This document shows, piece by piece, positions 2,589 to 58,546 of a stretch of DNA of 64,000 nucleotides (its first letter is position 1; each line of letters begins with the position of its first letter). The position numbers and the translations under genes are program-made. Source of the stretch: Verrucomicrobiota bacterium (GTDB taxonomy: Bacteria; Verrucomicrobiota; Verrucomicrobiia; Limisphaerales; JANNEF01); assembly GCA_031378375.1 (NCBI GenBank), contig JANNEF010000121.1, forward strand, positions 2,650 to 66,649. The letters are read 5' to 3'. The notes beneath the pieces were generated by a model. That model did not search any database. It was not told where the DNA came from and worked only from the letters and a program-made list of their open reading frames with translations.

Positions 2589-5118
<2,530 letters not shown>

Positions 5119-5159
5119 GGACGGCGATGCGGAGAAGGCGGGACGAGGAAAGCGGGAGG

Positions 5160-5792
5160 TCAGGTGCCGGGCAGGAAGCGCAAGGTTTCGGACAGGTGGG
5201 TGCGGTCGGCCAGGGTGTGCAGCAGCGGCCCTTGCAGGCTGAATTCGACCTGGCTCACGGAACCGACCGGACACCCGAAGCGGTAACGAAAGCGTCCGAC
5301 ATCAATTCCCAGCAGGCTGCAGAGCAGAATCCGGATGGTGGCTTTGTGGGAAACAATCAACACGTTGCCGGAATGGAGGTGTTTGATTTCTTCGATGACG
5401 GCGAGTCCACGCCGGGCAATCGCGATGGCGGCTTCGCCGCCGGTGGGAGCGTGCCAGCCGGGATCGGCTGTCCACCGGAGATAATCATCGTGAAATTCCT
5501 GGCTGACCGCCCCGGCGGTTTTGCCTTCCCATTGGCCGTAGCCGATCTCGCGAAGGCCGTCGTGAATCTCCGGCTTCGTGCCTAACATGTTGCAAAGGGG
5601 GTGGGCGGTGGTGAGGGCGCGGGTCTGCGGACTGGTGTAGATGGCGTTCCAGGGAGTCGAACGATAAGCGTCGGCGAAACTCCGGGCCATTTGCTGGCCC
5701 GCGTCGGTGAGCGCCGGGTCCAGTCCGCCCCCGCAGAATACATTGTCGTGGCTGCAAGGCGTCTGCCCGTGGCGCAGAAAATAAATCGTCAT
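5160..5792 (-). CDS. histidine phosphatase family protein (phosphoglycerate mutase-like)
   Basis: N-terminal IYFLRHGQT (RHG catalytic motif) and downstream LIVSHKATIR histidine motif. 210 aa. Confidence 0.8.
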   Translation of the reverse strand: MTIYFLRHGQTPCSHDNVFCGGGLDPALTDAGQQMARSFADAYRSTPWNAIYTSPQTRALTTAHPLCNMLGTKPEIHDGLREIGYGQWEGKTAGAVSQEFHDDYLRWTADPGWHAPTGGEAAIAIARRGLAVIEEIKHLHSGNVLIVSHKATIRILLCSLLGIDVGRFRYRFGCPVGSVSQVEFSLQGPLLHTLADRTHLSETLRFLPGT

Positions 5793-5961
5793 GGCGAGTG
5801 CGTTTCCGGTTTTAAGGATAGAGGGTTTCCGTGAGACGGAAACGGGTCAGTCTCGCTGTGATCTTGAGTGGGCAGGCGTAAGGGCCGCGCGGTGTGGACC
5901 AGGCAGCGCGCCAGAGTTTTGCTGGAAGGATTCACAAGCGGCGTCCGATGGACTCCGTCCG

Positions 5962-7194
5962 TCACGGCCGTCTCAAGCGGAAGAAGCAGCGCGGATCGGT
6001 CAACGGATAGGCCAGGTGGTAAAAGCCGTTGGACTGGCCGGGGCCGTTCGTATTCAGCAACCACGAACTGGCATTGGCGGGTGTGGCGGTGTGTTGCAGT
6101 TGAAAGGCCGCGGCGCCATTCGTCGCCCAGATCAGCCGCACTTGATTGGTCCCCTGGCGGGTCACTTCCATCGCCGGAGGTTGAAACAGAACAAGGCGAT
6201 CCATGAGAGTTCCGCCGCCGGCCACGGAATGAAATTCAAACGCCATCTGCCGCTCGTCGGCCAGGACGAGCATCGCGCCGTGGCCTGCGTTATACCGGAC
6301 GACGCTGCCGGCGACGGGAGTGCCGAAACCGGCGAGGGATGCGCCGCCCGCGCCGTTGACGAAATAGGGAAAACCGTCGTCCATGATCCGCTCGTAGTTG
6401 TGCGAGTCGCCGGAGACGACGGCGCTGGCGCCCCAATCGCGATAGGGCCAGCGGGTGCCCATCGTGGAGCCGGAAGAGGAGTAGGGCGGATCATGCACCA
6501 CGACAAGTTTCCAGGGTGACGCGGACGCCGCGAGCCGGTTCGAGAGCCAGCGGCCCTGGGTGGAACTGGCGGAGGTGCCGTCCGGCTCGTTCGCCTCGCT
6601 GTTGACGATCAAAAAGTGGACCGGCCCGCGCACGAAGTCGTAGTAGCGCTCGTTTCCCGGCAACGTGAAATAGGCCAGGTGTGTGGAATAACCCCCGGGG
6701 CTGAGATAATCATGGTTGCCCAGCGCGGGGAAAAAACGGTTGGAACTCGCGCCGCTGCCGAAGGTGCCGGTGTAATTCCCGATGTAAGCACGGTAGTATT
6801 TCCCGATGTTCCGGTCGATGTCACCCGCGCCGCCGTACTGGTTGTCGCCGCAGGTGATGATGAACTCAGGCTGCAAATTGGTCTTGATGAGATTCGCCAC
6901 GGCCAGTTCGTTCGCGTCGTCCACCCCGTAGTCGCCTAGGATCGCAAATCGCACCGGGCCGGCCAGGCAAAGCACGGGCAACGCCAGCGCGGCGCCTAGA
7001 ACTGCCCATGCAGTCCGTCGCACGCCAGTTGGCCAGCTTTTTACAAGCCATGTTATGAAGGAACCCATTGGGCGGAGGCTGCGTGAAAGTTCGCGCACCG
7101 GCACCTCGGACGTCGGTAGTGGTACAAGCCAACGGCGCGCATTTGGCAACAGTAAAAAGAACGCGACGTTCATACAATGGGGTGAACACCCCAT
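5962..7194 (-). CDS. secreted metallophosphoesterase (calcineurin-like) with C-terminal beta-sandwich-like extension
   Basis: Motifs AILGDYG, CGDNQY, GNHDY, VVHDPPY, SGDSHNYER. A more likely start is Met43 (7068), which precedes a signal-peptide-like segment. Confidence 0.75.
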   Translation of the reverse strand: MGCSPHCMNVAFFLLLPNARRWLVPLPTSEVPVRELSRSLRPMGSFITWLVKSWPTGVRRTAWAVLGAALALPVLCLAGPVRFAILGDYGVDDANELAVANLIKTNLQPEFIITCGDNQYGGAGDIDRNIGKYYRAYIGNYTGTFGSGASSNRFFPALGNHDYLSPGGYSTHLAYFTLPGNERYYDFVRGPVHFLIVNSEANEPDGTSASSTQGRWLSNRLAASASPWKLVVVHDPPYSSSGSTMGTRWPYRDWGASAVVSGDSHNYERIMDDGFPYFVNGAGGASLAGFGTPVAGSVVRYNAGHGAMLVLADERQMAFEFHSVAGGGTLMDRLVLFQPPAMEVTRQGTNQVRLIWATNGAAAFQLQHTATPANASSWLLNTNGPGQSNGFYHLAYPLTDPRCFFRLRRP

Positions 7195-7205
7195 AGCGAG
7201 AAGTC

Positions 7206-7310
7206 ATGGCCCGCCTTAGCGTTGAATATATGTCAACACTACTTATCGTCTTGATTGTGGTTCTCTTGCTCGGCGGCGGCGGCGGCTACTTCTACTCCCG
7301 GCGCCGGTAA
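7206..7310 (+). CDS. possible tiny membrane peptide (34 aa; or 26 aa from the internal Met)
   Basis: MARLSVEYMSTLLIVLIVVLLLGGGGGYFYSRRR: one hydrophobic helix and a basic tail. No homolog recognised and no clear RBS. Confidence 0.25.
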   Translation: MARLSVEYMSTLLIVLIVVLLLGGGGGYFYSRRR

Positions 7311-7442
7311 GCGGGTGCGGATTCACACGCTGTGCAGCCCAACAAAGCGCGGGCGGACTGCGTCTTGCCGGGCAAGTACAGTGGCGTGATCGTCGTTACG
7401 GAAGCAGAAACAGGTCAGTCGCGCACTCTCGCGACACTCCGG

Positions 7443-7507
7443 CTCACGACGAACTCGAAGAGTTCCTTCTTGGAACTGCGTTGGCGGATGTTTTGCACGG
7501 TCACGCC
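7443..7507 (-). repeat. cassette-associated repeat, copy 1 (partial)
   Basis: ctcacgacgaactcgaagagttccttcttggaactgcgttggcggatgttttgcacggtcacgcc. Hairpin core agttcc-ttctt-ggaact at 7461-7477. Lies 3' of the PIN gene. Confidence 0.7.
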
Positions 7508-7570
7508 TGCCTGCGGCGGGTTCCAAGTTCAAGGTTCCGGGTTTTGAGTTGAAGCCGGCCATTGTTCGCC

Positions 7571-8023
7571 TCAAGACAGCCCCAGGCGCTTCAATGCCTC
7601 GGCGGCGCGAATGATCGGAATACCCTCGAACGATCCGAGCGTGAGCAGATCATTGTCGCCCGTGACGGTCGCGTCAGCCTCCGCCGCCACGGCACAGGCG
7701 AGGACATGGACATCGTCCGGATCGCGCAGTCCGGCGGGTGCGGGAATCGAAATGGTGGGAACGAGTCGGGCCACCGCGCGGACTCGGGTGAACGCAATTT
7801 CCGGGGTGAATTGTTTCAGTGCCAGTCGCGCGGCAAACTTCCTGCGATTCAATACTTCGCGCAACTCGACGAGCAGGAGTTCGCTGAGGAAGAGTCGCAC
7901 CCGGCCATCCACCACCGACAGCAATAATCGACCCGGCTGCCCGCCCCAGAGCAGGCCGGAGACAAGCAGATTGTTATCAATGACCGCCTTCACGCTGCCG
8001 TCGCGCCGCCCGTACCGCGTCAA
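7571..8023 (-). CDS. PIN-domain toxin (TA-system toxin component, PIN family)
   Basis: KAVIDNNLLVSGLL near the N-terminus and TVTGDNDLL..GIPII near the C-terminus, typical of this PIN subfamily. Overlaps the upstream small gene. An alternative GTG start at 7990 is possible. Confidence 0.8.
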   Translation of the reverse strand: MTRYGRRDGSVKAVIDNNLLVSGLLWGGQPGRLLLSVVDGRVRLFLSELLLVELREVLNRRKFAARLALKQFTPEIAFTRVRAVARLVPTISIPAPAGLRDPDDVHVLACAVAAEADATVTGDNDLLTLGSFEGIPIIRAAEALKRLGLS

Positions 8024-8228
8024 CCTCCGTCTGGATTTCTTCCGGCGACATCGGCTCGCCTGGCAACGAGTGCAGGCCTGTGAGCATTTGACCCAGATCC
8101 TTGCGGGCGCGCTCGCGCCGCAATTCCTCGCTCAACAACTCTCCCAAACGACCGGACTCCAGCAGACCGCTGGCTCGCGCTTCATTCACCAGCGCGTCGG
8201 GCAGATCCAGTTGAATCGTGACGCTCAT
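7977..8228 (-). CDS. putative antitoxin partner of the PIN toxin
   Basis: 83-aa ORF immediately upstream of and overlapping the PIN gene (classic TA operon geometry). The fold is not recognisable by eye. Confidence 0.6.
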   Translation of the reverse strand: MSVTIQLDLPDALVNEARASGLLESGRLGELLSEELRRERARKDLGQMLTGLHSLPGEPMSPEEIQTEVDAVRAARRQREGGH

Positions 8229-8296
8229 GCCGTGGGACAGGATGACAGCACCAGCCGCACCGTGTCAAATCGTGAGTCAACTCGGGTCATCCCGAA

Positions 8297-8397
8297 CATT
8301 CGCATATTTCCCGATCACGACGAACTCGAACAGTTCCTTCTTGGAACTGTGTTTGCGGCTGTGCTCCACGGTCACGCCGGTGAAGCCGTGCGGGCGC
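8297..8397 (-). repeat. cassette-associated repeat, copy 2 (full length)
   Basis: cattcgcatatttcccgatcacgacgaactcgaacagttccttcttggaactgtgtttgcgg...gtcacgccggtgaagccgtgcgggcgc. Perfect 7-bp stem cagttcc/ggaactg at 8331-8349. Abuts the stop of the 79-aa gene. Confidence 0.75.
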
Positions 8398-8398
8398 A

Positions 8399-8638
8399 TC
8401 AGTGCGGGCGGGGTGGTTCATCGTTCAGGGCCAAGGCAGATGCTTCCGCGCGTTGGCGTTCTTCCTCGGCCACGAGTTGCCGCAGCTCCCCGGCATTGCG
8501 GACGACGGGACCGGAATGGGGGTGTTCGTCCGACCATTTCCGCAGGTTTTCAAACATGCGGTGAATATCGTAACCCGCTTCGCGCGCCAAGTCGTCCTTG
8601 ATGCGCCAGACTTCCTCAAGAATCGGATTCGCTTTCAT
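8399..8638 (-). CDS. 79-aa conserved small protein (putative antitoxin-like partner of PIN-like gene), copy 1
   Basis: MKANPILEEVWRIKDDLAREAGYDIHRMFENLRKW... is 76/79 identical to the ORF at 11999-12238. The ORF-track extension to 8821 is upstream noise. Confidence 0.6.
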   Translation of the reverse strand: MKANPILEEVWRIKDDLAREAGYDIHRMFENLRKWSDEHPHSGPVVRNAGELRQLVAEEERQRAEASALALNDEPPRPH

Positions 8639-8642
8639 GGAC

Positions 8643-8770
8643 TCATTCTCCCGCAAGTTCGATGGGGGTGCAAATCTCCGGCAGCGCCAGCTCGCGCGCG
8701 GCCATGAACGCGCGGAGTTTCTTCTGCAAGTGCGGATTGGCCAGGTGCCGCGTCGACGTCCGGCCACCCT
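8643..8770 (-). pseudogene. C-terminal remnant of a PIN-like toxin gene
   Basis: ..RTSTRHLANPHLQKKLRAFMAARELALPEICTPIELAGE aligns with the C-terminus of the 12216-12650 product (..WNCRHLANAQILRRIEAEVLRAGLRMPRVCTPLELMGD). No N-terminal PIN portion is present upstream. Confidence 0.5.
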
Positions 8771-8974
8771 CTTCCAGTTCCACTCCCTTGTCGGCACCCG
8801 CCTGCGGGCATCCTCTCCCATCCGGTGGGTGAAGGGCAGGCGCGGAGAAGGAATGCTCCGCAGTTTGCAGCACGTTGACGGTTTAACACTTCATGGTGGA
8901 AGGCATCCCCCTCTTTTGCGGCTTCTGCGTCTTTTTGTGGCAATGCAAACCGCGCGTTGTTTTCCGCCGCCAGA

Positions 8975-9046
8975 CTGTAGCGGCGCTCTGTGAGCGTCGG
9001 CGTTGTCTCGGTTTTTGGTTCGGCGGTCACAGACCGCCGCTACAGG
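8975..9046. repeat. 72-bp palindromic REP pair (type B), left flank of RAYT-2
   Basis: ctgtagcggcgctctgtgagcg(t/c)cgg-N20-cggcggtcacagaccgccgctacagg. Near-identical to 9755-9826. Confidence 0.85.
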
Positions 9047-9073
9047 ATTGCGTGCCCACAGAGCGCCGCTACC

Positions 9074-9760
9074 ATGTTGCGCGTGAACCCGGAAGTTCGT
9101 CCGCCCAGACTCAAACGCCTGGAACGGCTTTTCGTCAATCATCCGCTCTACTTCGTCACCGCGAACACGGAAGACCGAAAACCCATCCTCGCCAACGCCG
9201 GGGTCCATGAAGGATTCCGGAAGTTTTGCGAGACGGGCCTGACGCGGGGCGTGTTCGTTGGCAAATACGTCTTGATGCCGGACCATCTGCATTTGTTTGT
9301 GACGTTTGGTGAGGAATACGAAGCGGCGCTCATAGCGCGTCGCCGGCCACAGTCCGGCGCTACAGCCGGCGACCCTGTAGCGGCGGTCTGCGACCGCCGA
9401 ATCCAACAAGGTGACGCTGCAAAAAAGGCAGTCACAGACAGCCGCTACAACCGTCAGTCGCAGACGGACGCTACAGCAGGCTTTGTAGCGGCGGTCTGCG
9501 ACCGCCGTCTCTCCCCACTTTCGGAATGGATGAAAAGCTTCAAGAACTCGCTCTCGAAAACCTTGCGCGAAATGAATGTTCCCGCCCCGCACTGGCAGAA
9601 GGGCTTCTTCGATCATGTGATGCGTTCCAAGGAATCGTATTCCGAGAAGTGGCTTTACGTGGCAGAAAATCCCGTGCGCAAACATCTGGCCGCGCGTCCT
9701 GAAGATTGGCCGTATCAGGGAGAGATTTTCGCCCTGCAAGCCGGAGGCCACACGCTGTAG
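9074..9760 (+). CDS. REP-associated tyrosine transposase (RAYT), copy 2, carrying an in-frame internal REP cluster
   Basis: HUH motif MPDHLHLFV; C-terminal HWQKGFFDHVMRS and YVAENPVR typical of RAYT/TnpA_REP. ATG at 9074. A ~57-codon insert made of REP units sits between the HUH and Tyr halves. The TAG stop lies inside the right flanking REP. Confidence 0.75.
   Translation: MLRVNPEVRPPRLKRLERLFVNHPLYFVTANTEDRKPILANAGVHEGFRKFCETGLTRGVFVGKYVLMPDHLHLFVTFGEEYEAALIARRRPQSGATAGDPVAAVCDRRIQQGDAAKKAVTDSRYNRQSQTDATAGFVAAVCDRRLSPLSEWMKSFKNSLSKTLREMNVPAPHWQKGFFDHVMRSKESYSEKWLYVAENPVRKHLAARPEDWPYQGEIFALQAGGHTL
9337..9507. repeat. five type-B REP units nested inside the RAYT-2 coding sequence
   Basis: Units at about 9337-9365, 9375-9399, 9427-9450, 9451-9476 and 9483-9507 (consensus (c/t)tgtagcggcggtctgcgaccgccg and its complement). 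By my boundaries the total is 171 bp, a multiple of 3. Confidence 0.7.
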
Positions 9761-9826
9761 CGGCGCTCTGTGAGCGCCGGCGTTGTCTCGGTTTTTGGTT
9801 CGGCGGTCACAGACCGCCGCTACAGG
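9755..9826. repeat. 72-bp palindromic REP pair (type B), right flank of RAYT-2
   Basis: Direct repeat of 8975-9046, with one mismatch seen by eye. Confidence 0.85.
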
Positions 9827-10035
9827 AGGCGTGTGGATTGATGGGTTTCCTTCGCGGCAAAAATTTTTTCACTTTTTTTGCTCACGACGCTAAACAACGC
9901 CGGAGAACTGCCGATAGGCTTGGTAGAGACGAGTTCGGCTCGGTGAGCCGGACGGAGTCGGAATCGAGTGGTCAACAAAACTGTAATGAATCAGTCAGTC
10001 GTCGGTGCCATTAAAAAACTAAACACGCAACAGCC

Positions 10036-10887
10036 ATGAATATTCGCCAAATCAACAAGTTCCGTTCTTACGTCGGTGTGGAATCCGCCTGCAAACGTTA
10101 CAAACCGGTCTGGAATGCCGCCGCCGTGCCGGAGTTCGGCCTCGCGGTGACGGATCTTTCCGAGCGGATCGTCATCATCCGCGGGCTGGGGCAGCGGCAG
10201 GAGGATCCCACCACCGGCATCGCGGCCATGAAGCTGCATTGCCGGAAACAGGTATGCACCACCGGGGCGATCATCGCCGGCGCCGTCCATTCGTGGGCGA
10301 CCAAGACCAATCAACTCGACATCGCGCAGAAGGCGGACTGGTCGTACAGCGATCTGTTCGCCGGGCGCGAGACGGCCAGTGCGGACCGTTGCCAGAACGT
10401 TCACAAGCTGGCGAAGGAGAACCTTTCGTCGCTCGCCAAGTTCGGCGTCACGGCGGACAAGCTGGAGGAATTTCAGGAGCAGGTTGACGCGTATCTCGGT
10501 TGCATCGGCAAGCCGCGCGAGGCCATCACGACCACCAGGACGGTGACGCAACAGTTGGCGACGGAGTTCGCCGCCGTGGACAAGCTGCTGGAGAAGACGC
10601 TGGACAAGCTGGTGCTCCAGTTCCAGGAGAGCGCACCGGACTTCTTCAACGATTACCAGAACGCGCGCTTCATCGTGGATCAAAACGGCGCGCGGGAAAC
10701 GGACGAAGCGTCGGCGGACACGGCAAAGCCCGCAGCGTCGGCCCAGCCAGCGCAACCGGCACAGTCTCAACCCACCCAATCAGCGCAGTCAGCCCAGTCA
10801 CCGCAGCCAGAGACGCCCGCCCAGCCGGAGCAACCCGTGGCGCAACCGGAGCAGCCGTCCGCGCAATCGCAGCCGAAAGCGGCGTGA
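10036..10887 (+). CDS. hypothetical protein with Gln/Pro/Ala-rich low-complexity tail
   Basis: 283-aa ORF with ATG start after an AT-rich leader, a helical-looking body and the tail AQPAQPAQSQPTQSAQSAQSPQPETPAQPEQP. No motif recognised. Confidence 0.5.
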   Translation: MNIRQINKFRSYVGVESACKRYKPVWNAAAVPEFGLAVTDLSERIVIIRGLGQRQEDPTTGIAAMKLHCRKQVCTTGAIIAGAVHSWATKTNQLDIAQKADWSYSDLFAGRETASADRCQNVHKLAKENLSSLAKFGVTADKLEEFQEQVDAYLGCIGKPREAITTTRTVTQQLATEFAAVDKLLEKTLDKLVLQFQESAPDFFNDYQNARFIVDQNGARETDEASADTAKPAASAQPAQPAQSQPTQSAQSAQSPQPETPAQPEQPVAQPEQPSAQSQPKAA

Positions 10888-10934
10888 GCCGATGACGGGG
10901 TGGGTGGATGAGAGTCAGAACGGGGTCAGTCCCG

Positions 10935-11037
10935 CACTTTCGCATATTTCCCGCTCACGACGAACTCGTACAGTTACTTCTTGGAACTGCGTTGGCGGAT
11001 GTTTTCCACAGTCACGCCGGTGCAGCCGTGCTGGCGC
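10935..11037 (-). repeat. cassette-associated repeat, copy 3
   Basis: cactttcgcatatttcccgctcacgacgaactcgtacagttacttcttggaactgcgttggcggatgttttccacagtcacgccggtgcagccgtgctggcgc. Lies 3' of vapC. Confidence 0.75.
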
Positions 11038-11723: not shown

Positions 11724-11833
11724 GGTGGGACAGTCCCACACCTCGACACTGCCGGCAAATCCCTTCTTTGGCAACGGAAACGGGGTCAGAAACGGGTCAC
11801 CCATTAGCGTGAGCTATCCTGCACATTCGCATA

Positions 11834-11997
11834 TTTCCCGCTCACGACGAACGGCTGTGAACTGACGAGTGACAGGTGACGTGTGATGAGACGCCGGCCA
11901 CCTCACCCTCGGTCCCTCTCCCCGCGCGGAGAGGGAGGAACACGAACTGCGTTTGCGGATGTTTTCCACAGTCACGCCGGTGAAGCCGTGCGGGCGC
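11834..11997 (-). repeat. cassette-associated repeat, copy 4, split by an ~81-bp hairpin insertion
   Basis: The halves 11834-11862 and 11944-11997 match copies 2 and 3. The intervening 11863-11943 contains ccctctccccgcgcggagaggg (a REP-like hairpin) and replaces the repeat's own hairpin core. Confidence 0.7.
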
Positions 11998-11998
11998 C

Positions 11999-12238
11999 TC
12001 AGTGCGGGCGGGGCGGTTCATCGTTCAGGGCCAAGGCAGATGCTTCCGCGCGTTGGCGTTCCTCCTCGGCCACGAGTTGTCGCAGCTCCTCAGCATTGCG
12101 GATGACGGGACCGGAATGGGGGTGTTCGGCCGACCATTTCCGCAGGTTTTCGAACATGCGGTGAATATCGTAACCTGCCTCGCGCGCCAGATCGTCCTTG
12201 ATGCGCCAGACTTCCTCAAGAATCGGATTCGCTTTCAT
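11999..12238 (-). CDS. 79-aa conserved small protein, copy 2 (partner of PIN-like gene)
   Basis: 76/79 aa identical to 8399-8638. Its start overlaps the 3' end of the PIN-like gene. Confidence 0.6.
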   Translation of the reverse strand: MKANPILEEVWRIKDDLAREAGYDIHRMFENLRKWSAEHPHSGPVIRNAEELRQLVAEEERQRAEASALALNDEPPRPH

Positions 12239-12650
12239 CAGCAGAGTCTCCCATCAATTCCAGCGGGGTGCAAACCCTGGGCATCCGCAACCCGGCACGA
12301 AGCACTTCCGCCTCGATCCGCCGCAGGATTTGCGCGTTGGCCAGGTGGCGGCAATTCCAAGTCAGCAAGTAGTCGGCCTCCGCGATGACGGCGGCGGCCA
12401 GGTGAATCGCGTCGGAACGGGCGCGGGCCGGCAGCGCGCCCGAAGCCAGAAAACGAATCGTCAATTGTTCGGCCTCCAACGCGGACGGGATCAAGGTCAA
12501 TCCGGCCAGCACGACGAGCCGGCGTCGGGCCTGCTCCGCATCGCCACGGGCGGCTTCGGCCAGCGTTTCGGCGGAGGTGACGCAGTGAAATCCGATCCGG
12601 CGGCGCTGCCACCAATCGCGCGTGGCTTGTTGCAATCCCGCAGTCACCAC
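12216..12650 (-). CDS. PIN-like domain protein (putative toxin); 5' end unresolved
   Basis: DAIHLAAAVIAEADYLLTWNCRHLAN is typical of a PIN-like family paired with a small downstream gene. The same frame stays open upstream (..FIETTIVSYLVADPSRD..) back to a TAA with no ATG/GTG/TTG. The nearby ATG at ~12710 is out of frame. Confidence 0.55.
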   Translation of the reverse strand: MVTAGLQQATRDWWQRRRIGFHCVTSAETLAEAARGDAEQARRRLVVLAGLTLIPSALEAEQLTIRFLASGALPARARSDAIHLAAAVIAEADYLLTWNCRHLANAQILRRIEAEVLRAGLRMPRVCTPLELMGDSADESESDS

Positions 12651-13084
12651 GTCCCGGCTGGGATCAGCGACGAGGTAGCTGACAATCGTCGTCTCGATAA
12701 AACGGTTTCCATGTCGGTGCCAGGGCCGACTTTAGTTGCCCGATTCCTCTGGTCAATGGCTCAGAAATGGGCTGATCGGGCCGTTCAGAGATCCACTGAC
12801 ACCGTCGGGGAAATTGCTGGTTGAAGATGGAGAGTTGATGGACGGAAGGGGACACCTCACCCCCCTTCAATTTCCGATTTCAGATTGCCGATTTGCGATT
12901 TGAAGCCGGCCAGAGCGGGCACCTCGCCCGTCCGGCGGTGAGAAAACGAACACCTCACCCATGATTGCTGGCATCAAGTCCCAACTTTCGCACGGAAAAT
13001 TCTTCTGGCGAGCTAAGGGGCTGGGGTGAAATGAGTTGATCGATCGGGCTGGACTTGCGGGAAAAAGTTTTCCATCCTCCGGCC

Positions 13085-55000: not shown

Positions 55001-55921
55001 CTACGCCGCCTGCGCCTGCGCCACGTTGATCACGGCCTCGGTGCTCGCGGGGCCTTCCCCGCGCGAATTCACACCCACGACCTTGTAGCGATACTCGCCG
55101 GCGGCCAGACCCGTGGCCGTGTACACACCCGGCTTGAGCAAGTCCTCCTCCACCAGCGTGAACTCCGACTCGCCCGGCCCCTGGCGCCACGCCTGGAAAC
55201 TCGTCGCGTGCGGCGCGTCGAACTCCAGCCGCACCGCCCCCGCCGCCGGACTCTCCGCCTTCGTAACCTCCGCCTGACCTGGTTCCTGCGTGGCCGGGGC
55301 CGTCGGCACCCGGTCAATCGTCTCCCGCTCCGCCGTGCCCTCGGGGAACTGCCCGCGCCCCTGCGCCAGCGCCGCCGCGGCGAAATCCGCCAGCACCTGC
55401 TGTTGCGCGTGCAGAAAACCCTCGCGCAACTGGAACGGCTGATCCGCCGCCGCTTCCGCGATCTGTGCGCTGTCAAACGCCGTCTTCAACGTGTCGAACG
55501 CCGTGCGGGTCAGCAGCCCCACCTTGAACGGGCCCGCCCACCCCGGCGGATTCGGCAGCCCGGCCCACGCCTCCGAAATGCCCAGCGCACGGGTGATCGT
55601 CTCGTCATACGATTGGTCCTGCACGGGCAGACTTTCGATGCAGTTCAGGCTGGCGGGATCCTTGCGATAGCACGACTTCATGCACTGATACACGCTCACG
55701 CAGGCGTCGTGCAGCGCGGCGTGGGCGGCCTGCGTGGCGCCGCGCGCGGAATTGAGCGCGTTGAACTTGGCTACGTAATCCTGGCGCACCACCTTGGCCG
55801 AACCGATGATCGAGTCCACGATTGACACCGTGCTGTCATCCGGTTTGTACACCGGAATGACCGCCATGGCGGCGCGGATGTAATTGACCTGCGTGAGATG
55901 GAAGTTGAATTCTACTAACAT
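55001..55921 (-). CDS. hypothetical protein with C-terminal fibronectin type III-like domain
   Basis: Start at MLVEFNFHL (55921). C-terminus ..AVRLEFDAPHATSFQAWRQGPGESEFTLV..GEYRYKVVGVNSRGEGPAS is FN3-like. The N-terminal ~200 aa are unrecognised. Confidence 0.55.
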   Translation of the reverse strand: MLVEFNFHLTQVNYIRAAMAVIPVYKPDDSTVSIVDSIIGSAKVVRQDYVAKFNALNSARGATQAAHAALHDACVSVYQCMKSCYRKDPASLNCIESLPVQDQSYDETITRALGISEAWAGLPNPPGWAGPFKVGLLTRTAFDTLKTAFDSAQIAEAAADQPFQLREGFLHAQQQVLADFAAAALAQGRGQFPEGTAERETIDRVPTAPATQEPGQAEVTKAESPAAGAVRLEFDAPHATSFQAWRQGPGESEFTLVEEDLLKPGVYTATGLAAGEYRYKVVGVNSRGEGPASTEAVINVAQAQAA

Positions 55922-56357
55922 ACGATGACTGCCTTTCTTTTTTTTGTTATTATTTTGACGGACACGGCCCGGAGACCCCACCCATTGTTTTCTGAACCCG
56001 GAGCCGCCACCATTGACAACCCCGTCATACTGGGTGAATCGGCAGTCTGCGAAATCTGTTCACTAAAAAATGCTCTGATGAGCATTTTTATTTTCGGAGT
56101 GGAGCCGTCATCTGGGGACGGAAGGCGCGGGCGCAAGCGGATGGCACGGTAAGGAGTGGATGGGGTTGGGGTGAGGGCGGAGTAACCACGCTCTCGTGGC
56201 CCGCGCCAAAAATGAAGTGACCTGGCTCACGCCGGATGCTACGAAATGGACATGGACGCGATGAATCCCGACACGTCGAGACTGGACGCCGCTAATCGAG
56301 CTGGATGAAGCGGCTGAAAAACACATTGATGCGTTGATGAACAAATACCGTTGATAT

Positions 56358-57392
56358 ATGGCAAACAAACCAACGACTCGAAAACGCCTCACTGTCGTTG
56401 AAATCAACGAGGCAATCGCCGATTTCAAAGCCTGGCTTGATGACGCGCGAAGTGCCCGGTCAGCAGATAAAATTCCTGAACATCTCAAGCGTTTGGCGTT
56501 TCTCAGTGCAAAGAACTCCACTTTGCATCACATTTTTACCTTCATTCTGCCGAGCGCTGATATAGGTTCCATCCTGGAACGTTTCAAGAACGTCGAGTCG
56601 GTTGGGTTTAGCCGGCTTGTTTCAATCGAATGGCCGATCGATCCAGATGCGCGACTTGCCATGCAGTTCGCACTCCTCATTGCCGTGGGTGAAGCGCGAA
56701 TTGAATGGAATAGATTGTTTGAATATTCGTTTGGTACCTATGGTGACTTCTTGGCAGAATTATTTATTCCAGCGACTCGAGATTTCGAGCGTCTGCTCAA
56801 ACGCATCAAGCAAGAAATTCTGAGCCAAGTGCCTGATGAGGCAGCTAAGGCAAAACTATCCATGGCTACCAGACCACAGTTTTCATTGGACTTGTTCATT
56901 AGTCACAGCAGTAAGGACGAACAAATCGCCAAAGCTTTGATCGAGTTTCTGCGGTTCACTTTGGCTATTCCTCCCGAGCGTGTGCGATGCACAAGCGTGG
57001 ACGGCTACAAGCTATCGGCAGGAGTGCCCACGGAACTCGAACTAAAGCGCGAAATCCATGAAAGCCGATGTTTCATCGGACTCGTCACTCCAAACAGCCT
57101 CCAATCATCTTTCGTGTTATTCGAATTGGGCGCCCGCTGGGGATCAGGCGCCCGACTGATTCCGGTCCTTGCTGCTCGGCAAAAGGCATCGGAGTTAAGA
57201 CCTCCACTTTCAACCTTGAATGCGCTTGATTGTGAGAAAGGGCAGGAAATGGAGCAACTTGTTCATGAACTTGCGCGTGAGCTAGGGAAAAACGTGCCGC
57301 TTCCTGCTACATACGAGAGCCAACTGAAAGCCTTGGTGCAAGCTGCGGGAGGGTTACGGCCACATAACAATTTCTTTGCCGAGCTCGTGTGA
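56358..57392 (+). CDS. TIR-domain protein with unknown ~170-aa N-terminal domain
   Basis: C-terminal half: DLFISHSSKDEQIAKALIEFL (TIR beta-A/AA loop), CFIGLVTPNSLQSSFVLFELGARW (candidate catalytic Glu). The gene is visibly lower in G+C than its flanks. Confidence 0.75.
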   Translation: MANKPTTRKRLTVVEINEAIADFKAWLDDARSARSADKIPEHLKRLAFLSAKNSTLHHIFTFILPSADIGSILERFKNVESVGFSRLVSIEWPIDPDARLAMQFALLIAVGEARIEWNRLFEYSFGTYGDFLAELFIPATRDFERLLKRIKQEILSQVPDEAAKAKLSMATRPQFSLDLFISHSSKDEQIAKALIEFLRFTLAIPPERVRCTSVDGYKLSAGVPTELELKREIHESRCFIGLVTPNSLQSSFVLFELGARWGSGARLIPVLAARQKASELRPPLSTLNALDCEKGQEMEQLVHELARELGKNVPLPATYESQLKALVQAAGGLRPHNNFFAELV

Positions 57393-57494
57393 CTGTATGC
57401 ACATACAGACGACCGCCCCCTCACTGAGAATCCGCTGCGACTGGTCCTTCGGACACAGTCGCGCTCCGGGGAGGTTATCGCGCGGTTGCGGGCA

Positions 57495-57994
57495 AATCCC
57501 GTCGGGGCGGTTAGGGTGTTTTGGCGTCGGAAGCCGCTCTACCCGTCCGGAAGGGCGCTGTACCTGTCCGGGAGGCCGGTCATTCCGTCGGCGAGGCTGT
57601 TGTACCTGTCGGGAATCTGGCCTACCGGTCGGGGAGGTCGCTGTACCTGTCAGGAAAGCTGCCATTCCTGTCAGGAAGGCTGCGGTACCTGTCGGCGAGG
57701 CTGGCATATCTGTCAGGAAGGTCGCTGTACCTGTCAGGGAGGCTGCTACACCACAAATATCAGGCTGCCTGACAGGTACAGCAGGCTCCCCGACGGAATG
57801 ATCGGCCTCCCGGAGAGGTACAGCGGCCTCGCCGGGCGGGGAAACGCCCTTCGCCGCCGGAGGACCGGGCGGCGCGACGGGTGGAACAGATTGCCCGGCG
57901 CGTGTGCCGGCCTCCCGCGCCGGGTGAACAGCCTGGCTGACGGAGTGATCGGGCGGGCCGACGGGTGGAACGCCTTGCCCCGGCGACGTGAACC
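57495..57994. repeat. dyad-symmetric array of ~21-bp tandem repeats (about 12 forward plus 11 inverted units)
   Basis: Left arm 57495-57748, units like gtacctgtcnggnaggctgcn alternating with cattccgtc/atatctgtc-type units. Centre acaccacaaatatc at 57749-57762. Right arm 57763-57994 holds reverse-complement units (ngcngcctnccngacaggtac). Confidence 0.8.
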
Positions 57995-58161
57995 TAAAAC
58001 ACGCAGTTGAACAACCAAGGAACCAAGGAACAAAGCTGGAATTCAAAAAGATGCGCCGGGAAGTGAAAAATCCTCCTTCGCTTGCACAGGTCTCGCTTCG
58101 CTGCAAAACAGCGAAGGGCCTGCCATCCGCAGCCTGGAGCGCGGGCGAACGTGATCGCCCT

Positions 58162-58192
58162 CCTTCGCCCGGTGCTGCGCTCCGGGCGAAGG
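58162..58192 (-). terminator. hairpin immediately 3' of tmRNA (terminator/processing-like; no U-tract)
   Basis: ccttcgcccgg-N9-ccgggcgaagg, an 11-bp perfect stem that starts 2 nt after the encoded CCA. Confidence 0.35.
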
Positions 58193-58193
58193 A

Positions 58194-58546
58194 TGGTGGA
58201 GGCGGGGGGAGTTGAACCCCCGTCCCTGACAAACAAACCAGCCGCGACTACATGCTTAGTCCGGAGAAGGTTTTCTGCCGTGCGATAGCGTCCGAACTCG
58301 AGACGCACAGCCTAGTCCGCATGAAGTTTTCTCGGTCGCCGGCGCGCAGTCTCCGCCGTCAACCATGCCTGCTGTTGCGTTCAGCCGGCGTAGCAGGTGT
58401 CCACCGGTGAACGTCGAGGCAATTAAGCCGCGAGAGCTAGTTCTGTATTAGCTTTTGATTTTTGGTTCGATGATTAACGAGGCCAACGAACCGTCCTCGG
58501 CATGCCGCCTCTGGCGCATCTCTCAGGTCGAAACCAGTACGCCCCC
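58194..58546 (-). ncRNA. ssrA: transfer-messenger RNA (tmRNA)
   Basis: 5' GGGGGCGTACTGGTTTCGAC pairs with the 3' ..CGCCTCCACCA, including the G3:U alanine identity pair. T-arm GGGGGTTCAACTCCCCC. Internal tag frame GCT AAT ACA GAA CTA GCT CTC GCG GCT TAA (58452-58423) encodes ANTELALAA. Confidence 0.9.

Follow-up and report, generated by a model that had tools for sequence, protein, structure and literature searches.

We analyzed a 64,000-nt stretch of contig JANNEF010000121.1 from a Verrucomicrobiota bacterium (assembly GCA_031378375.1), hereafter the window, and within it the interval 55922-58193, which the ARAGORN and Rfam placements identify as the 3' flank of the transfer-messenger RNA (tmRNA) gene ssrA. 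Starting next to a divergently oriented Fn3-like gene, this interval carries an intact gene of 344 codons (56358-57392, plus strand), which encodes a protein with a helical N-terminal domain fused to a TIR domain resembling that of SpbK, and then a repeat array and the hairpins that border ssrA. The G+C profile of the window drops to 0.46-0.55 between positions ~55750 and 57400 and lies at 0.60-0.73 on both flanks. The open reading frame (ORF) of the TIR gene has a G+C content of 0.50 and a G+C content at third codon positions (GC3) of 0.50, against 0.65-0.93 for the GC3 of the other credible ORFs of the window, which bears out the lower G+C claimed for this gene in the original prediction. 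The low-G+C patch is probably horizontally acquired DNA of at least 1.15 kb, and probably of ~1.5 kb (~55900 or 56243 to ~57400). Because positions 57400-58193 have a host-like G+C content (0.59-0.68), the foreign DNA does not abut ssrA and is separated from it by ~800 nt of host-like DNA containing the 21-nt repeat array and the hairpin that follows the tmRNA CCA end. The original prediction had described a 2.3-kb low-G+C islet at ssrA that included the array; a low-G+C segment does exist, but it measures only ~1.5 kb (55900-57400), does not touch ssrA and leaves the array outside the foreign patch.

The TIR domain occupies residues 177-331 of the protein (56886-57350, plus strand) and displays the conserved motifs FISHSSKD, RCTSVDGYKL and FELGARWG. 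Pfam TIR_2 (PF13676) matches residues 180-300 with an E-value of 1.7e-11 (45.1 bits against a cut-off of 28), and NCBIfam gave no name for the 344-aa protein. The best PADLOC model was spbK (2e-11), with residues 145-261 of the protein aligned to positions 113-232 of the 308 in the model; spbK was also the best model for five other family members, the six proteins ranging from 2e-11 to 5.5e-15. When a profile built from 29 full-length homologues was compared with the Protein Data Bank (PDB), the top match was again SpbK (9phb, E=3.4e-7). The full protein was predicted by AlphaFold2 (AF2) with a mean predicted local distance difference test score (pLDDT) of 86.3, and the top structural match of this model in Foldseek was the SpbK filament subunit 9phb_A, with a target-normalized TM-score (TMt) of 0.78 and a root-mean-square deviation of 2.9 Å over 154 columns; the TIR domains of SPARTA, TRAM, MAL and AbTir came next.

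The alignments place E256 (codon 57123-57125, plus strand) opposite the catalytic glutamate E192 of SpbK, and this predicted catalytic residue is invariant across 29 family members. The TIR assignment of the original prediction is upheld, and the proper alignment that it had proposed as a check confirms the catalytic glutamate. Residues contacting NAD+ in SpbK are likewise represented by residues invariant in the family (S121/S122 by S184/S185 and T148 by T212), and so are two residues of the SpbK alphaC interface (G194 by G258 and W197 by W261); SpbK Y188 aligns with F252. In SpbK, the substitutions E192Q and E192A abolish NADase activity and defense, and with G194R or W197A filaments no longer form and NADase activity and defense are likewise lost (PMC11984713, PMC12847820).

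SpbK, the TIR NADase of the Bacillus subtilis element ICEBs1 that acts by abortive infection against phage SPbeta, is by both sequence and structure the best match of the TIR domain described here. Both proteins are single polypeptides in which a linker connects an N-terminal helical domain to the TIR domain at the C-terminus. They have in common the FISHSSKD motif, the catalytic glutamate and the glycine and tryptophan of alphaC, and are both encoded on foreign DNA. They differ in that TIR identity amounts to only ~19-26%, that the hosts belong to different phyla and that SpbK lacks the variable C-terminal domains and linked genes of the present family. A full-length match to the PADLOC spbK model was not reached, and both the spbK hidden Markov model and the SpbK PDB sequence align with the TIR part only. 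The protein shares the TIR type of SpbK and probably its logic, and its N-terminal domain and the partial model match place it outside SpbK proper. The TIR folds of SPARTA (TIR-APAZ), AbTir and SARM1 also superpose on that of our protein (Foldseek E-values of ~1e-3) and follow the same theme of an NADase activated by oligomerization, a theme common to TIR effectors (PMC12847820). In contrast to these systems, no APAZ or Argonaute partner and no SAM or ARM domains are present here, and the likeness is structural and generic to TIR domains.

The N-terminal domain (residues 1-172, 56358-56873, plus strand) is the proposed sensor. In the AF2 model, residues 13-167 are entirely helical and form eight helices, and the domain modeled alone reached a pLDDT of 86.3 and a predicted TM-score of 0.80. 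Foldseek retrieved no relative of this fold (best E-values of 0.5 in the PDB and 0.6 in BFVD), nor did the domain match anything in Pfam, PADLOC or NCBIfam, in agreement with the unrecognized helical domain of about 170 aa announced by the original prediction. Used by itself as the query against 1.84 billion cluster representatives, it matched only 12 clusters, the sole one with a recognizable second domain carrying TIR_2; a profile search returned 10 matches, mostly fragments. Fusion of the domain to other effectors was considered and rejected, TIR_2 being its sole recognizable partner. Judged from these searches, the N-terminal domain is rare and has been seen so far only with the SpbK-type TIR subtype.

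Full-length relatives of the protein form a rare family, which is defined by the two-domain core. About 35 of the top 120 matches cover more than 85% of the query, with 32-72% identity, and originate from Verrucomicrobiales, Longimicrobium and metagenome contigs. Most family members are ~320-330 aa long and correspond to the bare two-domain core, and others add differing C-terminal domains. The three closest relatives (P0002-P0004, 70-72% identity) carry an extra C-terminal domain of 140 aa, P0002 and P0003 being 482 aa long; a Cys-rich C-terminal domain is fused in P0010 and P0012 and is encoded by a separate downstream gene of 201 aa at the P0006 locus (contig L002). The same TIR subtype (FISHSS...RCTSV...FELGARWG) is joined elsewhere to unrelated domains (HEAT, MarR and periplasmic-binding-like) and also occurs on viral contigs, a modularity typical of defense sensors.

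The homologues sit in defense or mobile contexts. P0006 and P0010 (contigs L002 and L009) are encoded directly downstream of an MmeI-like restriction-modification enzyme of 1062-1067 aa, the junctions between the two genes (L002 6805-10981 and L009 6393-10972) consisting of one 8-nt gap and one 4-nt overlap. P0009 (L010 7073-8609) follows the C-terminal remnant of an MmeI-like (type IIL/IIG) enzyme and precedes a gene for a NERD protein, with Gabija-like OLD/UvrD genes nearby. P0005 (L006) has DUF3800 and a 176-aa gene on one side, a NERD gene on the other and an integrase upstream; integrases are found near the TIR gene in both L002 and L006. P0004 adjoins a PIN toxin-antitoxin pair and an IS200-type transposase, and P0070 (L143) adjoins a PDC-S35 TIR gene. 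The direct succession of MmeI-like and TIR genes in L002 and L009, and the position after a remnant in L010, would be expected if the gene studied here were an orphaned accessory of MmeI-type restriction-modification, for example a TIR module responding to restriction failure and functionless alone. However, other members are linked to ubiD, to DUF3800 and the 176-aa protein or to a ~100-aa protein, so that the MmeI link is not family-wide, and defense genes commonly adjoin one another in islands; we regard this origin as improbable.

The ~100-aa protein was seen in a distant subfamily (P0070 and P0074), where it is conserved and ends 1 nt before the TIR start. It was observed at L141 7769-7999, L142 3059-3382, L143 7691-7999 and L144 3-257 and carries the motif DEFMLR.T.F.S…AIPDE.WD.F.R.RTRF.SW.EM; no match to it was found in Pfam or PADLOC. 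Together with the TIR gene it may constitute a genuine two-gene system.

We propose that the locus carries an acquired two-domain SpbK-like TIR gene, lodged in a slot between the Fn3-like gene and the repeat array, whose product would act as a phage-triggered abortive-infection NADase, a reading by analogy to which we assign a probability of roughly 0.55. The gene would then be a plausible single-gene phage defense, for which we infer NADase activity, triggering by phage, sensing through the N-terminal domain and expression in the host. Following the SpbK precedent, the protein would be inactive in uninfected cells, and its N-terminal domain would bind a multimeric phage component. This binding would bring the TIR domains together in assemblies whose active sites are composite, and there E256 would hydrolyze NAD+ to ADP-ribose (ADPR) or cyclic ADPR (cADPR), so that the infected cell would be arrested by abortive infection.

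Several observations weigh against this proposal. SpbK's N-terminal domain is a four-helix bundle of 94 aa, whereas the domain found here has ~170 aa and eight helices and shows no detectable similarity to it. Two SpbK positions are not conserved, N191 of the alphaC interface being replaced by F255 and D158 of the BB loop by V223. The 140-aa C-terminal domain found in all three closest relatives is absent and might serve regulation or sensing, and a promoter scan detected no sigma-70-like promoter ahead of the TIR gene. Many family members are tightly linked to the ~100-aa protein, to a Zn-ribbon-like protein, to NERD proteins or to MmeI-like enzymes, and the TIR protein may consequently not act alone. 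Finally, TIR proteins can generate signals instead of being effectors.

One alternative is modeled on Thoeris ThsB, in which the protein would generate a messenger of the cyclic-ADPR or His-ADPR type for a separate effector encoded elsewhere in the genome or since lost. ThsB is likewise a stand-alone bacterial TIR protein with a catalytic glutamate, and the PADLOC ThsB models gave several weak and partial matches to the 344-aa protein, the best at 1.3e-7. The NERD or Zn-ribbon-like genes located directly downstream of the TIR gene in some homologues could be effectors, and SpbK itself makes N1-cADPR, the role of which is unknown (PMC12847820). On the other hand, our protein differs from ThsB by its large N-terminal domain, SpbK outscored ThsB for every member tested, and no ThsA-type gene (SIR2/SLOG, Macro or transmembrane) was found within ~10 kb in the window or in eight homologue contexts. 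A signal-generating role of this kind is in our opinion unlikely.

If the gene is active as an SpbK-like NADase, the mechanism of SpbK, in which a sensor domain clusters the TIR NADase on a phage assembly, would extend beyond Firmicutes to an uncultured high-G+C lineage and to a sensor fold with no known relative, amounting to a new module of trigger recognition. It is to be noted that finding one more TIR protein whose N-terminal domain lacks an assignment is in itself common in metagenomics. A broader and quite tentative proposal is that the helical domain and the SpbK-type TIR core together define an undescribed defense family that senses a conserved phage component, with swappable add-ons (fused C-terminal domains, Zn-ribbon-like and NERD neighbors, the ~100-aa upstream protein and MmeI-like partners) that may modulate triggering or operate downstream of a nucleotide signal made by the TIR domain and, separately, that the slot between the Fn3-like gene and the array might be a new recombination hotspot for defense cargo.

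The two ends of the foreign patch could be examined by comparison with the closest relatives. On the left, a short ORF stops at 56354, 3 nt ahead of the ATG at 56358, which confirms the short gene remnant reported just before the TIR start. On the P0002 and P0003 contigs, the upstream gene stops at the same distance of 3 nt from the start of the TIR gene, and its tail matches NCBIfam PRK10922 over positions 446-486 of 497 (E=1.8e-7) and residues 446-485 of Escherichia coli UbiD (2idb, E=2e-4). A collinear DNA alignment to these upstream sequences identifies positions 56243-56354 (plus strand) as the 3' remainder of a UbiD-family decarboxylase gene, now frameshifted, with an identity of ~64% across its length and 71% in the final 73 nt, the frame being broken in the window by deletions of 6 and 8 nt. 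Further ubiD sequence was sought in 55922-56242, where no signal was obtained. The remnant had been taken as a hint of a lost upstream partner; it is instead the 3' stub of a housekeeping UbiD-family gene and indicates no defense partner. On the right, homology to the closest relatives stops at 57345-57420, where their linker and 140-aa C-terminal domain begin, and the G+C content climbs there from 0.52 to 0.65. No remnant of this C-terminal domain or of the other add-ons of the family was found anywhere in the window.

The ubiD stub and the missing C-terminal domain therefore indicate that the TIR gene arrived as a fragment. Judging from these sequence comparisons, the patch derives from a "ubiD-TIR-C-terminal domain" locus that was truncated on either side, the ubiD stub having been co-transferred. 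The locus shows a defense gene moving as a bare recombination fragment, devoid of an integrase and accompanied by a stub of its donor's neighbor gene. Such an origin raises the question of whether the gene is an inert passenger, that is, a scrap of recombination cut at both ends, not expressed and heading to decay. Truncation of the donor locus at both patch ends, the frameshifted ubiD stub, the lack of a promoter-like site upstream and the extra domain of all the closest relatives are what such a fate would predict. However, the ORF of 344 codons is intact, and the protein retains 33 of the 34 columns showing no variation among 28 other members, together with 60 of the 61 columns conserved at 90% or more. 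Its distance to outgroups equals that of its close relatives, with no sign of acceleration. Because the conserved columns are kept and no extra distance to outgroups has accumulated, no decay is seen. Moreover, since most family members (~320-330 aa) naturally lack a C-terminal extension, the retained core corresponds to a complete architecture. We consider the inert passenger a doubtful explanation.

The gene for tmRNA is a known integration site, and the original prediction had accordingly placed the TIR gene on a tmRNA-integrated island. As in ssrA-targeted islands, foreign DNA is found here on the 3' side of the tmRNA gene, at a distance of only 0.8 kb, and genuine examples of such integrations came to light in our searches. 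A scan of metagenomes with the 3' 32-mer of the tmRNA recovered 120 loci, among which the nearest tmRNAs have 82-88% identity to that of the window and none of its flanking genes in common. At one of the loci observed (L056 1409-2699), the 32-mer occurs twice, 937 nt apart, on either side of a HEPN-MNT pair, in the manner of a textbook ssrA mini-island. Another (L026 9349-12917) represents an element integrated at ssrA in a distant relative: directly after a tmRNA with 73% identity to that of the window come genes resembling those of a tyrosine recombinase (9765-10985) and of a primase/TOPRIM protein (11826-12917).

Unlike these islands, the locus of the window has neither an integrase nor a duplicated ssrA end. 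No ORF of a size compatible with a tyrosine or serine integrase is present in 55922-58193, the flanking genes being housekeeping, and no second copy of the ssrA 3' end (25-mer, up to 3 mismatches) was detected in the 64-kb window; both negatives had already been noted in the original prediction and were reproduced. A candidate attachment site, TGRCAAACAAACCA, belonging to the 14-nt repeat D4 (56359 and 58227, 13 of 14 positions matching), was rejected as lying at about the level expected by chance and showing no extension. Furthermore, a strong, native-looking hairpin comes immediately after the CCA end, the DNA adjoining ssrA is host-like in G+C, and the intervening array recurs in a relative contig (L145) that lacks a tmRNA and yet has a low-G+C insert beside the same Fn3-like gene. 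A site-specific island at the ssrA 3' end, with an integrase and an attachment repeat that were later lost, is thus very improbable. Like the signal generator, the inert passenger and the MmeI accessory, it is less well supported than an SpbK-like NADase. Proximity to a tmRNA gene is by itself a weak guide to whether an island has integrated there.

The feature that recurs between relatives appears to be a different one. The Fn3-like gene (55001-55921, minus strand, 306 aa, GC3 0.83) is divergent from the TIR gene and forms the conserved left anchor of the slot. Its product has ~30 metagenome homologues, one of them annotated fn3, and a C-terminus that looks Fn3-like, and no Pfam match of its own was found. 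In L145, the homologous protein (P0131, 65% identity) is encoded ~5 kb from a similar convergent 21-nt array (3910-4500) with an GTACCTGTCAGG core, and the lower-G+C insert of ~5.2 kb located between this gene and the array (4800-10000) encodes a 1019-aa protein, for which neither Pfam nor PADLOC gave a match. In L146, a homologue with 54% identity has a 6.5-kb low-G+C region upstream (3500-10000), where a small TIR gene distinct from that of the window is accompanied by a pentapeptide-repeat protein and by pieces of both PDC-M60C and a type IIG enzyme. Because L145 and L146 both carry low-G+C cargo beside the Fn3-like homologue and neither contig has a tmRNA, the recurrent feature is a variable slot upstream of the Fn3-like gene rather than ssrA. 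This slot may be a lineage-specific hotspot for accessory or defense DNA. A search of genome contigs for the MlaD neighbor gave as its sole match a Cloacimonadota protein with 23% identity.

The array on the right of the slot consists of two convergent arrays of 21-nt repeats (57529-57977), with ~11 units on the plus strand followed by ~10 units on the minus strand. Their consensus, GAGGCTGCTGTACCTGTCAGG, contains the palindrome CCTGNCAGG, conservation is best at the center, and the whole can be folded into one long hairpin (z -8.3). No further occurrence of the motif was found in the window. Protein-binding sites and a recombination structure are both possibilities for its role. ORFs called across the array look non-coding. 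A minus-strand ORF of 292 aa covering it, which is a gene call in a public assembly, was discarded as coding, having no GC3 excess and no Pfam match and overlapping the ssrA end. An Rfam hit to DUF2693-FD at 57787-57842 scored 24.9 bits against a gathering score of 44.5 and was taken as chance. We also observed an imperfect direct repeat of 26 nt (TCCTTCG…GCGCTCCGGG, 73% identity) that brackets the array, possibly by chance, with one copy at 57445-57470, just past the TIR gene, and the other at 58161-58186, inside the hairpin adjacent to ssrA.

The ssrA gene itself (58194-58546, minus strand) was located by ARAGORN and Rfam (RF00023, 161.6 bits) and encodes the tag peptide ANTELALAA. Directly after its CCA end lies a G+C-rich hairpin formed by the inverted repeat I7 (58161-58193, minus strand; -38.6 kcal/mol, z -7.2), which is probably the ssrA terminator or a processing stem. 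Over 58143-58193 (minus strand), two stacked G+C-rich hairpins follow the CCA end immediately, with no T-run. The neighboring genes in the window are housekeeping ones, namely those for FtsI, RsmH, QueA, an ABC ATPase, an MFS transporter, MlaDEF and a YHYH protein. Each of the window proteins checked is a singleton at 90% identity, so that no closely related sequenced organism is represented in the collections that were searched. Within the low-G+C stretch 55922-56242, the A/T-rich hairpin of the original prediction was recovered at 56066-56089 as AAAAATGCTC-TGAT-GAGCATTTTT, with a perfect 10-bp stem and a 4-nt loop. A consensus terminator scan did not list this hairpin; from its sequence it looks like a bidirectional terminator, and its folding energy is -13.4 kcal/mol on one strand and -10.6 kcal/mol on the other (z -3.7 and -3.2, respectively).

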